Shown here one piece after another: positions 4,957-10,498 of a stretch of DNA of 13,203 nt (positions within the stretch are counted from its first letter, which is position 1; every line of letters starts with the position of its first letter). Made by a program: the position numbers and the translations under genes. Below the pieces are notes generated by a model that was given only the letters and a program-made list of their open reading frames with translations, was not told the DNA's origin and did no database searches. The stretch comes from a virus: the IMG/VR virus record IMGVR_UViG_3300045988_104973. One strand, written 5' to 3'.

Positions 4957-4985
4957 TTGTCTAAAAACGGGATGTGTGTTATAAT
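4957..4985 (+). promoter_or_regulatory. Strong sigma-A promoter with extended -10, directly after the ATPase stop
   Basis: TTGTCT (4957-4962), a 17-nt spacer, then TATAAT (4980-4985), with TG at 4977-4978 giving TGnTATAAT. Confidence 0.75.
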
Positions 4986-5095: not shown

Positions 5096-5123
5096 AAACA
5101 AACCGGGAAAGAAAGAGGTGGCT

Positions 5124-5321
5124 ATGGACGCAAACGCAATCATGACTATGGTGCAGACGTTAGGATTTCCAATCGTTTGCTGTGGGGCACTCTTTTGGAG
5201 AATGATGAAAGAGTCCGACAATCACAAAGTGGAAATGGAAAAAGTCACGGATGCGCTGAACAACAACACACAGGCACTCATCCGATTGGAAGAATCATTG
5301 AAAGGAGAAAAAGAAAAATGA
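5124..5321 (+). CDS. Small membrane protein, YvrJ-like (65 aa); possible holin-type or lysis-timing protein
   Basis: RBS AAGAGG is at 5113-5118. There is one hydrophobic segment (TLGFPIVCCGALFW) followed by a charged helical tail. The GFPI motif and overall layout recall the YvrJ family. Its stop overlaps the next start (ATGA at 5318-5321). Confidence 0.7.
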   Translation: MDANAIMTMVQTLGFPIVCCGALFWRMMKESDNHKVEMEKVTDALNNNTQALIRLEESLKGEKEK

Positions 5322-6903: not shown

Positions 6904-6936
6904 TGTTCCGCATGGACATAACAGAAAGGAGTGAAC

Positions 6937-8337
6937 ATGGCATTATCAGTTACTCTTTACACATTCTCCAAACGGCTCAACAGTACAAAAAATCCCCCCG
7001 CTGAGGGGGGATTCACTGTACAAGCCGTGCTAAAAGACAACACCTCTATCATCAGACCGGAACTGGAAGTGGTTGAAAATGTGACTGCTTATAACTATGC
7101 CTTTATCCCCGCTTTCTCCCGGTATTATTTCGTTCAAGATGTGACATGGGAAAAAGGTATATGGCGTGTTGTACTCTCAGAGGACGTTCTAGCAACCTAC
7201 AAAACGGTGATAGGTGACACAACCGCCTATATCCTGCGGTGCGCGACGTTCCAAGACCCTACTATTACAGATTTACTCTATCCGGCAACTACCGAAATTG
7301 ACACGCAAAAAACAGAATTTACCCTAGAGGATGGATGGATTGAGAATCCGACCGTGGCAAACGGCTATTATGTGGTGGGCATTGTGAATAATCTGGACAC
7401 TGCCTATGGAGCAGTTGCCTACTATGTTATGACCGGAAAAGAAATGGCAGATTTCCGTGCATACATGTTAGGAGATATCCAATCATGGGATCAGATCACT
7501 GACTTTTCCGGTGACGTTGCGAAAGCATTCATTGACCCATTTCAATATGTGGTTTCATGTATGTGGTTTCCAACGGGCGTTCCGGTTGATCCAGTCAAAA
7601 AGACAATTGCCTTTGGTTACTGGAAATCAAACCTTGAAGCGTCCGTATTATCACAGACCACACGGAACTATCCGTTTTCTTTAGCTAGACCAGACCGAAC
7701 CAACAACAAAGATATTACTTATCTCTACCGGACACCGTGGGCAAACTACTATCTGTACTTGCAACCGTGGGGTGCAGTTCAATTGGATGCATCAAAAATC
7801 GGGAAAACCGGAGTTAGTTGTAACATCACCTACGATTTTGTGAGCGGAAAAGCAATCTTAACTGTTACATCGAAATTAACAAATGATGTGCTGTACAATG
7901 GTGAAGCACAGGTAGGTGTGCAGATGCAGTTATCGAACGTAGGTTTGAATCTGAAAAGCGCTACGGGTAGTGTAAGCGGGTTGATCGAAGCGGCGAAAAA
8001 CTCCCTCGGCGGTGTAATCGGTAGCATCGGTCAGAAGTTCAGCGCAAGTAGCATCGCATCCAGCGTGTTTGCTAGTAATGCGTCCGTACAAAGCACAGGC
8101 ACGAATAGCGGCATGGCGGCAGATTCGCTCGGCGGAAAAGCCGCTCTCTTCGCAAACTACTATGAATCAGTTATGTTTGACGTAGCAGATAACGGAAAAC
8201 CGCTCTGCCAGAACCGGAAAATATCGGATTGCTCGGGCTATGTAAAAGTGGAAAACGGAGCAATCAATTTTTCCGCTACAGAACCGGAAAAGCAAATAGT
8301 AAAAGAAAATTTAGAAGGAGGATTTTATTATGAGTGA
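6937..8337 (+). CDS. Tail knob / distal tail tube protein (phi29 gp9-like), 466 aa
   Basis: RBS AAAGGAG is at 6925-6931 and the start is taken as ATG 6937. The N-terminal block (YNYAFIPAFSRYYFVQDV...LSEDVLATY) resembles my recollection of the gp9 N-domain. A Gly/Ser/Ala-rich hydrophobic loop (SGLIEAAKNSLGGVIGSIG...SSVFAS) parallels the gp9 membrane-active loop. The C-terminal tail is of the EGGFYYE type. Confidence 0.6.
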   Translation: MALSVTLYTFSKRLNSTKNPPAEGGFTVQAVLKDNTSIIRPELEVVENVTAYNYAFIPAFSRYYFVQDVTWEKGIWRVVLSEDVLATYKTVIGDTTAYILRCATFQDPTITDLLYPATTEIDTQKTEFTLEDGWIENPTVANGYYVVGIVNNLDTAYGAVAYYVMTGKEMADFRAYMLGDIQSWDQITDFSGDVAKAFIDPFQYVVSCMWFPTGVPVDPVKKTIAFGYWKSNLEASVLSQTTRNYPFSLARPDRTNNKDITYLYRTPWANYYLYLQPWGAVQLDASKIGKTGVSCNITYDFVSGKAILTVTSKLTNDVLYNGEAQVGVQMQLSNVGLNLKSATGSVSGLIEAAKNSLGGVIGSIGQKFSASSIASSVFASNASVQSTGTNSGMAADSLGGKAALFANYYESVMFDVADNGKPLCQNRKISDCSGYVKVENGAINFSATEPEKQIVKENLEGGFYYE

Positions 8338-8509
8338 GATTAAAATGTATTCACTGCCGACAACCGTGGCAGTAGCTATTCTTGTAATCGGTGGCAACTA
8401 TGGGAACGGGTCAGACCGCATCAAGCGGTTAAAAGAAGATGGCTTCGACCCGGTCAAAGTGCAGAAATGTGTAAATGACATTCTTCCTATAATCAAGAGG
8501 TATCGTTAA
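8330..8509 (+). CDS. 59-aa stand-alone CW_7 (Cpl-7-type) cell-wall-binding repeat protein
   Basis: Hand-translated as MSEIKMYSLPTTVAVAILVIGGNYGNGSDRIKRLKEDGFDPVKVQKCVNDILPIIKRYR; it is absent from the ORF track. RBS AAGGAGG at 8315-8321 lies 8 nt upstream. The pattern VIxGxYGNGxxRxxxLxxxGxDxxxVQxxVNxIL matches the CW_7 repeat as I recall it. The stop overlaps the lysin start (TAATG). Confidence 0.6.
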   Translation: MSEIKMYSLPTTVAVAILVIGGNYGNGSDRIKRLKEDGFDPVKVQKCVNDILPIIKRYR

Positions 8510-9591
8510 TGGCGGGGAATATTCAGGTGTCTTACCAGTGGGCAATTGACACCTGCAACCGAAAAAATGTAGGCTATTCACAAACTTATCGAAATCAGCA
8601 AACAGTGAACGGGATAACTTATTATGATTGCAGTTCTTTTATCTGGTATGCGCTTCTAGCATCCGGTTTTGATGTAGTAGCCGCCCATGGTGGGCAAAGC
8701 TGGCCTTTTACCACCTATGACATGGTTGGTGTGTTGGATGCTTTAGGTTTCAACCGTGTCCCGGTTGGCGATCCATGGAAACCCGGTGACATTCTGTTGC
8801 GTAACAACCAGTACGGTAACCATACGGAAATGGTCTATGATGGGCGGCGGACGATGGGTGCGCACAGTTCTACCTATCCCCCGGGGGAACAGGTGTCAAT
8901 TAACACCGGAGACAGCAATCCGGCTACCTGGGACACTTGCCACCGTTTTGGCGGTGGTGCAAGTGGGGCAAAAGGAAGCAGTGCTTATGTAGTAGCCTCT
9001 ATTTGCGGTAATTTCTGGCAGGAATCCGGCATCAATCCCGGCATCTGGCAGGACTTGCGCGAATCCACGTTTACAGATCTGTTAGTCGGATTCGGTCTTG
9101 GTCAGTGGACAAATACGGAAGGTGATACGCATGGACGTCTTTACAAATTACATGAATGGTTGATGAACAACGGCTATGCGGATGATGATGGTGTCGGACA
9201 GCTGAACTATCTGATTCACGAAAATGTGTGGTATAGCACGGAAGAAGCATCCGCCTATAAGAATCTGACTGAATTTTTGACCAGTGACAGTACAGATATT
9301 GCGGCGTTAACCCACGCATGGAACATCGGCTGGGAAGGGATTCATGACAGCTCGTGGGATGCCCGTGTGCAGTATGCACAGAACTGTTATGACTATATCA
9401 TCGCTCATGCGAATGATACATCTATCACGACCTGGGCAAAAGGTAACCGTTACCTTAGCGAATCGGAGCGTTATAACAACGCAGTGTTAATTTATCGTTT
9501 CCTCAGCACGGGGGCAACACCCGGAACAGGCACGACATTTCTGATTGCGGTTCTCAGTAAAAAGAAACGGAGGGACAGAAAGAATGTATAA
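8509..9591 (+). CDS. Two-domain peptidoglycan hydrolase: N-terminal NlpC/P60-type cysteine peptidase plus C-terminal phage tail lysozyme-like domain, 360 aa
   Basis: The N-domain has YDCSSFIWYAL (catalytic Cys), WKPGDILL and GNHTEMVY (His). The C-domain has ICGNFWQESGINP and GFGLGQWT, typical of the Phage_lysozyme2-type fold with a catalytic Glu. No wall-binding domain is visible in this polypeptide. Confidence 0.85.
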   Translation: MAGNIQVSYQWAIDTCNRKNVGYSQTYRNQQTVNGITYYDCSSFIWYALLASGFDVVAAHGGQSWPFTTYDMVGVLDALGFNRVPVGDPWKPGDILLRNNQYGNHTEMVYDGRRTMGAHSSTYPPGEQVSINTGDSNPATWDTCHRFGGGASGAKGSSAYVVASICGNFWQESGINPGIWQDLRESTFTDLLVGFGLGQWTNTEGDTHGRLYKLHEWLMNNGYADDDGVGQLNYLIHENVWYSTEEASAYKNLTEFLTSDSTDIAALTHAWNIGWEGIHDSSWDARVQYAQNCYDYIIAHANDTSITTWAKGNRYLSESERYNNAVLIYRFLSTGATPGTGTTFLIAVLSKKKRRDRKNV

Positions 9592-10498
9592 TGGCATACC
9601 CTTTTCAGCGGACTACATCAACGCGGCAAACTCGGTGATTTCACCGAGTACCGTGCATTGCCGGAATACCAGCTTATCTCTTTATTTTCAGCGGTATCTC
9701 TTACAGAAAGCGATGAGCGTATTCAAATGGGAGATGCCGCCGGAATGGTCGAAGAACTACACCCTTTATACGCTGTATTGTTGGGGCTTTTTCGCTGTAG
9801 TCAACACAGACAGGTACGGAGTGATCCCACAGGCCTGCGGACTGCGCGGATATGATGTATTCTATCAGCCAACTAACGCAATCATCACGAACCCACTCCT
9901 ATCCGGGACACTGGAACCAAGAATTGGTTTGCAGTGCGAACTGGTTCGGTTACAGCCGGATTACGGCGGCATCATGGATATTGTTACCTATTATGCGGAT
10001 ATGCTGGCTCTCTGCGCTGAATCCGTAGGAATGAATCTGGTCAACAGTAAACTTGCTTATGTCTTTGCCGCCGAGAACAAAGCTATGGCGGAAACATTCA
10101 AAAAGCTGTATGATCAGATTGCGGCGGGAAATGCAGCTGCTATCATTGACAAACAGTTATTCCGGGAAGACGGAAAGGCGAGCTGGCAGATGTTCAACCA
10201 GAACGTTGGTCAGAACTACATTGCAGATCAAGTGCTTTCGGATATGCGGAAAATCGAAGCTATGTTCTGCACGGATGTGGGCATCCCGAACGCCAACACG
10301 GACAAAAAGGAACGGTTAATCACAGATGAGGTGAACGCTAATAAGGTGGAGACACGTTCAAAGTGTGACCTCTGGTTGGAAGAATTAAAAGAATCCTGCA
10401 AGAAAGTGCGAGAGATGTTCGACATCAAACTGGATGTGGACTGGCGTTACAAAGGAGGTGTAGAAGATGGCAACGTTGAGCCTGTTAGGACTGTATAA
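9584..10498 (+). CDS. Portal / upper collar connector (phi29 gp10-like), 304 aa
   Basis: FKWEMPPEW, GIPNANTDKKERLITDEVNAN and the C-terminal DVDWRY align with the phi29 connector segments FEWENLPP, GIKNANLEKKERMVTDEV and VKFRY. The start is taken as ATG 9584 (RBS GGAGGGA, 9570-9576). Confidence 0.9.
   Translation: MYNGIPFSADYINAANSVISPSTVHCRNTSLSLYFQRYLLQKAMSVFKWEMPPEWSKNYTLYTLYCWGFFAVVNTDRYGVIPQACGLRGYDVFYQPTNAIITNPLLSGTLEPRIGLQCELVRLQPDYGGIMDIVTYYADMLALCAESVGMNLVNSKLAYVFAAENKAMAETFKKLYDQIAAGNAAAIIDKQLFREDGKASWQMFNQNVGQNYIADQVLSDMRKIEAMFCTDVGIPNANTDKKERLITDEVNANKVETRSKCDLWLEELKESCKKVREMFDIKLDVDWRYKGGVEDGNVEPVRTV

Follow-up and report, generated by a model that had tools for sequence, protein, structure and literature searches.

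The window analyzed here is the whole 13,203-bp stretch of IMG/VR record IMGVR_UViG_3300045988_104973, a complete linear genome of a phi29-like phage with perfect 179-bp inverted terminal repeats. Among its late genes, a gene for a stand-alone CW_7 wall-binding repeat (P0001, 59 amino acids (aa), 8330..8509, + strand) runs directly into the gene for a peptidoglycan hydrolase with two catalytic domains (P0002, 360 aa, 8509..9591, +). Gene order and sequence comparisons among related phages make a functional linkage of the two genes very probable. We consider the chances about even that they encode a two-gene split lysin, in which the CW_7 protein is a targeting subunit acting in trans, an arrangement analogous, not homologous, to the lysin PlyC of streptococcal phage C1. 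A physical association of the two proteins, with its docking surface and stoichiometry, and a role in lysis from within are inferred parts of this reading.

The CW_7 gene and the hydrolase

The product of the small gene is, by profile matching and structure prediction, a single CW_7 three-helix bundle predicted to bind peptidoglycan. The Pfam family CW_7 (PF08230) matched it with a score of 52.8 bits (cutoff 25; E 3.3e-14) and from position 2 to position 40 of the 40-position profile, which bears out the reading of one CW_7 repeat made in the initial annotation of this sequence; a Protein Data Bank (PDB) profile search with the small protein and its relatives agreed, retrieving the CW_7 module of the endolysin Cpl-7 (5I8L, E 1e-27; also 4CVD). 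Both alignments place the repeat core at residues 14-52 (8369..8485, +). The AlphaFold2 model (predicted local distance difference test (pLDDT) 92.5) has helices at residues 11-20, 27-36 and 41-58, and its best Foldseek match is the Cpl-7 repeat 4CVD (template modelling score (TMt) 0.81, root-mean-square deviation (rmsd) 0.7 Å, 46% identity). Aligned to the muropeptide contacts reported for Cpl-7 repeat R2 (PMC5705596), the protein keeps eight of the ten positions that contact the muropeptide GMDP (V19, I20, G25, N26, R30, Q45, V48 and L52). Three of these, R30, Q45 and I20 (Arg271, Gln286 and Ile261 of Cpl-7), are invariant in 24 diverse stand-alone members. In Cpl-7, the Arg, Gln and Ile of this site have been tested by mutation, and with a single CW_7 repeat the enzyme is 780-fold more active than its bare catalytic module (PMC5705596). 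The stand-alone subfamily has features of its own, namely a near-invariant and subfamily-specific C47 within the motif VQxCVN and a helix 3 extended by ~6 residues.

The small open reading frame (ORF) begins with ATG and ends with TAA. A Shine-Dalgarno sequence, AGGAGG, is read 8 nt before its start (8316..8321, +); the ORF overlaps the upstream 468-aa ORF (6931-8337) by 8 nt and shares the A at 8509 with the hydrolase gene in a TAATG stop/start overlap (8507..8511, +). The strong ribosome-binding site and the overlaps with both neighbors had been described at the outset, and all can be read in the sequence. Of 57 distinct related junctions, 48 have an SD-like (Shine-Dalgarno-like) motif ahead of the CW_7 start. 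The hydrolase gene has a Shine-Dalgarno sequence of its own, AAGAGG (8495..8500, +), which lies within the last CW_7 codons, 8 nt before the hydrolase ATG; in relatives of the CS229P2 type, the codons of a C-terminal YGG (TACGGAGGT) fill this role. To judge from these signals, the TAATG overlap couples translation of CW_7 and hydrolase.

The 59-aa ORF is a genuine gene under strong purifying selection. The comparison covered 19 distinct contigs from the clade to which the window belongs, whose synonymous sites are close to saturation (proportion of synonymous differences, pS, 0.54); the ratio of nonsynonymous to synonymous proportions (pN/pS) was 0.08 and the ratio of the corresponding rates (dN/dS) in unsaturated pairs 0.056, comparable to the values for the hydrolase (0.06 and 0.033). 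All 53 close protein clusters of the product (74-97% identity) are 59 aa long, and the length of stand-alone CW_7 proteins stays at 57-61 aa across lineages that are only 45-55% identical. A length-restricted profile search yielded 898 clusters of short CW_7 proteins, a few of which carry the nr name 'MAG TPA: CW7 repeat protein'; the best 120 of the 898 are almost all exactly 59 aa and lie on 12-17.5-kb contigs. An exhaustive stand-alone CW_7 profile search of 1.84 billion representatives had multi-repeat long proteins in all of its top 150 places and is uninformative on stand-alone members.

The hydrolase (AlphaFold2 pLDDT 90) belongs to a family with 1641 matches. Its N-terminal domain (8536..8949, +) is an NlpC/P60 (Amidase_5-like) cysteine peptidase, with Pfam scores of 24.5 bits for Amidase_5 (cutoff 21) and 17.3 bits for NLPC_P60, the latter below its cutoff of 23; Foldseek matches include CwlO, MepS/Spr and RipA, and the hydrolase alignments show no variation at the catalytic candidates C41 (8629-8631) and H105 (8821-8823). 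The following lysozyme-like domain (8968..9396, +) is homologous to the N-terminal domain of phi29 gp13 (Pfam Phage_lysozyme2, PF18013, E 1.8e-19; PDB 3CSR/3CSQ, E 2.7e-22; Foldseek TMt 0.70, rmsd 2.2 Å), and its catalytic candidate E172 (9022-9024), in an ES motif, is likewise invariant. Pfam detected no wall-binding domain in the protein. The earlier description of an NlpC/P60-type peptidase joined to a lysozyme-like domain and lacking a binding module thus holds in Pfam and Foldseek, and so does the proposal that this is the only peptidoglycan hydrolase of the genome: no other ORF of at least 60 aa in the window matched one in Pfam or PHROGs.

At the C-terminus, a disordered tail (residues 338-360, 9520..9588, +; pLDDT below 50) ends in the peptide FLIAVLSKKKRRDRKNV, which is hydrophobic, then basic. 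In relatives, a Gly-rich linker leads into the terminal peptide K-x-MP-[VIL]-W-M-x-[IL]-[KR], and this peptide is near-universal in the hydrolase family (for example in L020, L027, L035-L037, L062, L070 and L073). It could be tail-docking or membrane-active. One family member, P0065, was found on a 20-kb ENA scaffold (L177), where it adjoins bacterial major facilitator superfamily (MFS) transporter and galactokinase genes and follows a 317-aa ORF whose C-terminus resembles a PG_binding_1 motif; this scaffold may be a chimeric assembly or an integrated element.

Linkage of the pair and the endolysin slot

In a search of IMG/VR seeded with the small protein, 66 stand-alone CW_7 ORFs (52-61 aa) were recovered from contigs of 12-17 kb. 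Most contigs of the whole comparison were sampled in a small number of gut-virome studies, and several are not complete (71-87% by CheckV). The gp13-like hydrolase directly follows the CW_7 ORF in 65 of the 66, the remaining one being cut by its contig end, and the gap from CW_7 stop to hydrolase start is between -11 and +7 nt in all 57 distinct junctions. The partners come in three forms, of 360 aa, of 336-343 aa (~42% identical) and of 203 aa, the last with the lysozyme domain only. Because the forms include this lysozyme-only one, the lysozyme domain and the C-terminal tail are the elements common to all partners. The 203-aa proteins (L105:3167-3778 and L108:3167-3781) lack the P60 domain, end in the same C-terminal peptide and are preceded by a holin and a CW_7 gene.

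The arrangement is also present in cultured phages. Clostridium phage CS229P2 and Hungatella phage CH17P1 carry a holin-like gene, a 59-60-aa CW_7 gene and the hydrolase gene, annotated there as 'morphogenesis protein 1', as a three-gene block upstream of the scaffold and capsid genes. Holin-like homologues stand directly upstream of CW_7 in these two phages and in L104, L105 and L124. The pair thus lies between holin and scaffold in CS229P2 and CH17P1, and between a 468- or 470-aa ORF and the connector in the window and in L178, a more distant relative (hydrolase 60% identical) with the order major capsid protein, 470-aa ORF, CW_7, hydrolase, connector. These gene orders indicate that the CW_7-hydrolase pair was relocated as a unit and that the holin gene kept its place at the start of the late operon. 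The window's holin-like gene (5118-5321) lies 3 kb from the pair (8330-9591); in most relatives, it is directly upstream.

A natural fusion, P0164 (404 aa), was found in two samples directly after a holin gene and consists of CW_7, a short linker and the same hydrolase; both parts can therefore work as one chain, in the order of the split genes. A CW_7 domain tree was computed with the columns of a diagnostic helix-1 dipeptide removed; it is unrooted and, like the hydrolase tree, was made with short or fast methods. All 45 distinct podophage stand-alone sequences fell on one side of a branch with a Shimodaira-Hasegawa-like approximate likelihood ratio (SH-aLRT) support of 95; the other side held the embedded repeats together with the fused form and the stand-alone CW_7 proteins that unrelated larger phages encode. 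As far as this tree can place them, the podophage stand-alone proteins form a monophyletic subfamily in small phi29-like phages of gut Lachnospiraceae. In the hydrolase tree, the CW_7-adjacent enzymes make up two clades, compatible with one origin (one change, support 72). The stand-alone CW_7 ORFs of the unrelated larger phages (L157:108-311 and L162:2941-3138) encode 65-67 aa with a polar helix-1 dipeptide; one precedes a small transmembrane protein, and the other has an HNH-like gene on one side and head genes on the opposite one.

A second IMG/VR search, seeded with the hydrolase, gave 80 loci in which the gene immediately upstream was classified. A conventional endolysin occupied this slot in 63 of them: NlpC/P60 with SH3_3 in 35, NlpC/P60 with two CW_7 repeats (240 aa) in 17, Amidase_3 in nine, Amidase_2 in one and GH25 in one. 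The other upstream genes were a stand-alone CW_7 (four loci), a stand-alone PG_binding_1 protein of 84-94 aa with a holin before it (four), a holin only (seven) and an unresolved gene (two). Shorter sister endolysins also occur, of 228 aa and, with one CW_7, of 189 aa. The P60 domain of the sister endolysins is a paralogue of the hydrolase P60 domain; long tblastn matches (~1580 nt) that had been considered as insertions in the hydrolase gene proved to span the paralogous P60 of the upstream endolysin and the hydrolase.

No conventional endolysin was detected in the window, in CS229P2 or CH17P1, both plaque-forming cultured phages, or in nine further contigs with stand-alone modules, of which L166 and L169-L173 carry CW_7 and L174-L176 carry PG_binding_1. 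On this gene content, phages with the pair have lost, or never had, a one-piece endolysin, and where sister phages have their endolysin gene, only a binding module is present. Since it occupies that slot and its repeats are 38-61% identical to those of sister P60+CW_7 endolysins, the stand-alone CW_7 may be a descendant of such a C-terminal repeat in an ordinary endolysin of this kind. The stand-alone PG_binding_1 genes (L020:1666-1923, L021, L027:2709-2993 and L037:2745-2999) lie between a holin and the same hydrolase family (whole contigs L174-L176), and by position they show the split arrangement with another binding fold that is unrelated to CW_7. Three of the holin-only contigs were read over their whole length: L163 has an Amidase_2 endolysin elsewhere, L165 encodes a 266-aa protein with a C-terminal SH3_3 and no recognized catalytic domain that is possibly an endolysin, and L164 has only the hydrolase.

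Putative docking surface, proposed mechanism and alternatives

A candidate site for a contact with the hydrolase is on helix 1 of the CW_7 protein. The dipeptide I17-L18 (N258 and E259 in Cpl-7) is LL, IL or FL in 50 of 52 stand-alone proteins; the two exceptions belong to unrelated larger phages and have no hydrolase linked to them. Of 49 embedded repeats, 46 have polar or charged residues at these positions, and the fusion P0164 has DM. Helices 2 and 3 of Cpl-7 flank the muropeptide groove, and helix 1 sits behind it (PMC5705596), so a protein partner could bind the helix-1 patch without blocking wall binding. We infer from this pattern that the hydrophobic patch is a putative hydrolase-docking surface. 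Other candidate clues were discarded. Eight hydrolase positions clustered at residues 55-65 had appeared to form a signature of CW_7 partnering, but P0072 and P0074 share the loop despite full upstream endolysins. The basic charge of the small protein (isoelectric point (pI) 9.5, versus 4.9 for the hydrolase body) is matched by the equally basic embedded repeats of sister endolysins. The conserved C-terminal tail of the small protein, taken as an interface, is encoded by the same codons that form the hydrolase ribosome-binding site.

We hypothesize that both proteins would be made late in infection from the late operon, in coupled amounts, and released to the wall by the holin-like protein. 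The CW_7 subunit would bind the GlcNAc-MurNAc-peptide unit through its conserved Arg/Gln/Ile groove, while the helix-1 hydrophobic patch of the subfamily, away from the groove, would hold the hydrolase on the wall. The tail-type enzyme, as D,L-endopeptidase and lysozyme, could then act as the endolysin of the phage, with CW_7 supplying in trans the targeting module that free Gram-positive endolysins normally carry. Lysins mounted on the virion are held in position by it and generally have no binding domain. Positioning of the tail lysin by the virion would explain why the module is absent beside endolysins and kept, in two unrelated folds, where no endolysin is present.

The proposal of a PlyC-like functional pair in a phage without other lysins, which the initial annotation had put forward, is strongly supported by strict synteny across diverged lineages, joint relocation, selection, the fusion, the slot, the absence of endolysins and the PG_binding_1 parallel. 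No homology to PlyCA or PlyCB was found: the PlyC structure 4F88 was absent from the PDB sequence search and from the top 50 Foldseek matches for both proteins. The accompanying suggestion of an independent invention holds for the binding fold, although CW_7 itself may descend from an ordinary P60+CW_7 endolysin repeat.

Several observations weigh against the split lysin. The lysozyme domain of the hydrolase is homologous to that of the phi29 tail lysin gp13, and its role could be restricted to entry; a gp13-like lysozyme-peptidase was detected in purified virions of PhiCP7R, a clostridial picovirus (PMC3362512). The C-terminal tail of the hydrolase is kept whether the phage has an endolysin, a stand-alone module or neither, and among the aligned hydrolases no residue signature specific to CW_7-partnered enzymes was found. 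Part of the conserved C-terminus of the small protein is under a further constraint, since its codons also form the hydrolase ribosome-binding site. If the ORF were the remainder of a truncated endolysin, its mutual exclusivity with endolysins would follow trivially. A complete contig with inverted terminal repeats (L164, G003) carries holin and hydrolase genes and neither an endolysin nor a binding module, and the hydrolase may thus be able to lyse without a partner; in this contig, the hydrolase gene (7826-8998, - strand) directly follows a Phage_holin_4_1 gene and encodes a 38-aa N-terminal extension (MSEEFKDELHNLNTHADGKQLSDKLFSMREAVQNNSSST...).

The main rival, which the initial annotation also offered and which does not exclude the split lysin, is that the two proteins serve the virion. 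A gp13-like enzyme at the tail tip, with CW_7 on the enzyme or on the tail knob, would anchor the tail tip to peptidoglycan at entry, and lysis from within would be a by-product or be achieved otherwise. The position of the window's pair among tail and connector genes of the late operon, without its own promoter or terminator, is in keeping with this, as are the gp13 homology and the PhiCP7R virions. We nevertheless think it unlikely as a full account. Because none of the 63 endolysin-bearing sister loci carries a stand-alone binding module, the tail enzyme does not generally need one; the pair follows directly after the holin, a lysis-cassette position, in most lineages; and release still requires some lysin, of which the hydrolase is the only one these phages have.

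A bolder form of the split lysin, also unlikely in our estimate, combines both roles. CW_7 proteins would self-assemble through the helix-1 patch into a multivalent, PlyCB-like platform that docks the hydrolase, and the complex would serve as tail-tip penetration device and sole endolysin. If so, a whole radiation of gut picovirus-like phages would do without a dedicated endolysin, and stand-alone PG_binding_1 would represent a comparable solution reached independently.

Alternatively, the CW_7 protein could be an endolysin remnant that works as an independent wall-binding factor and does not associate with the hydrolase, for example in lysis timing, in masking wall sites or in limiting enzyme diffusion to neighboring cells. 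Its place in the endolysin slot, its 38-61% identity to the repeats of sister endolysins and the missing partner-specific signature in the hydrolase fit such a factor. We rate it as quite improbable, however, given that stop/start coupling to the hydrolase persists over deep divergence, that the pair was relocated together, that a natural covalent fusion exists and that the new hydrophobic surface is confined to the stand-alone clade.

A further possibility, that a frameshift or readthrough joins the small ORF to the 468-aa protein or to the hydrolase and that it is not expressed alone, was rejected as very improbable. The ORF does overlap both neighbors, and a -1 slip before its TAA would enter the hydrolase frame, but it has a strong Shine-Dalgarno sequence and an ATG of its own, its frame is closed by a stop at 8312-8314 (15 nt upstream of the ATG), and no slippery heptamer is present. 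The relation to the hydrolase frame also varies among relatives (gaps of -11, -1, 0, +1, +3 and +7 nt), and the upstream neighbor is a holin in other lineages. A decaying remnant or chance ORF without function, which the shortness of the ORF and its place at the endolysin position of relatives might suggest, retains hardly any probability and is effectively refuted by a pN/pS of 0.08 at near-saturated synonymous sites, constant length, invariant binding residues and 898 clusters.

Genome setting, known lysins and significance

The left-hand genes of the window encode, in order, a candidate terminal protein, a type-B DNA polymerase, a phi29-type single-stranded DNA-binding protein and a gp16 packaging ATPase. 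A single promoter-like site near 4957 precedes all late genes, and no promoter or terminator was found in the window that separates the late genes around the CW_7-hydrolase pair. The late genes begin with that of a holin-like protein with one transmembrane segment (5118..5321, +; phrog_4898, PHROG E 8.8e-9), followed by a scaffold-like ORF, a phi29-type major capsid protein, the 468-aa protein (6931..8337, +), the 59-aa ORF and the hydrolase. The phi29 gp10-like connector (9584..10498, +; Pfam Phage_connector E 8e-19, phrog_2038) starts 8 nt before the hydrolase ends, and a 279-aa protein and a beta-helix tail spike complete the right-hand side. The 468-aa protein had been labelled a tail knob, for which its position makes it a candidate. 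It had no match in Pfam, PHROG or the PDB, and BLASTP showed no similarity to the gene product annotated as gp9 in phage CS229P2; we therefore dropped its assignment as a gp9 homologue, and it may be a very divergent or a different tail protein.

PlyC is among the most active lysins known. The window's pair resembles it in several ways: both consist of adjacent genes in one operon of a phi29-like podophage, with the small binding subunit first and no other lysin, and in both the catalytic subunit has a glycosidase-type and a cysteine-peptidase domain and no binding domain. They differ in the binding fold, here a CW_7 three-helix bundle for muropeptide rather than the PlyCB fold (an octamer in PlyC), and in domain order, which is reversed here (peptidase, then lysozyme); the window's pair also has neither a helical docking domain nor an intervening endonuclease gene. 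PlyC has been described as the characterized lysin of two separately encoded subunits (PMC13722301). Since picovirus tail lysins are structural relatives of PlyCA (bioRxiv 10.64898/2026.03.11.711020), the logic of a tail lysin with a separately encoded binding subunit is shared.

With the Cpl-7 and lambdaSA2 endolysins, the small protein shares the binding module and its Arg/Gln/Ile muropeptide site. There, the repeats are covalently attached, whereas here one basic repeat (pI 9.5) is encoded alone, with an extended helix 3 and a hydrophobic instead of a polar helix-1 surface dipeptide. With phi29 gp13 (morphogenesis protein 1), the hydrolase shares a homologous lysozyme domain, a two-domain catalytic build without a binding domain, and a gene that adjoins lysis and tail genes. 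The second domain is an N-terminal NlpC/P60 here and a C-terminal M23 metallopeptidase in gp13, and phi29 has a separate endolysin, gp15, of which the window phage has no counterpart. By analogy with gp13, the hydrolase may be located at the tail tip of the virion.

Free binding-domain subunits that act with a catalytic chain are also known from Lys170, CTP1L, CD27L and LysIME-EF1. In the Lys170/CTP1L type, an internal start in the endolysin gene gives a free domain that pairs with the identical domain of the full-length chain, whereas the window has a separate binding-domain gene with its own ribosome-binding site and a hydrolase without a CW_7 to pair with. Surveys of Clostridioides difficile and Streptococcus thermophilus phages reported consecutive catalytic-only and binding-only genes, without experiments (PMC12671070; bioRxiv 10.1101/2024.10.31.621281). 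Those cases place LysM or ZoocinA_TRD beside conventional endolysin catalytic genes in larger phages; the partner here is a tail-lysin homologue, and no conventional endolysin is present. Stand-alone CW_7 proteins go unmentioned in a 2026 survey of the endolysins of gut phages.

A split CW_7 lysin is therefore not a new principle; it is a large and conserved case that is open to test in cultured phages. If the reading is true, it would be a second large, evolutionarily independent two-gene lysin family, with hundreds of protein clusters in human-gut viromes and cultured representatives on Clostridium symbiosum and Hungatella, and a third such family would be added if the PG_binding_1 case holds. 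In annotation, a 'morphogenesis protein 1' in these phages may be a functional lysin, and 59-aa ORFs named 'hypothetical' or 'CW7 repeat' may belong to one. The arrangement would bear on the design of lysins against gut Lachnospiraceae and on binding modules that act in trans, and on the gene economy of very small phages, in which a tail lysin would double as the endolysin.

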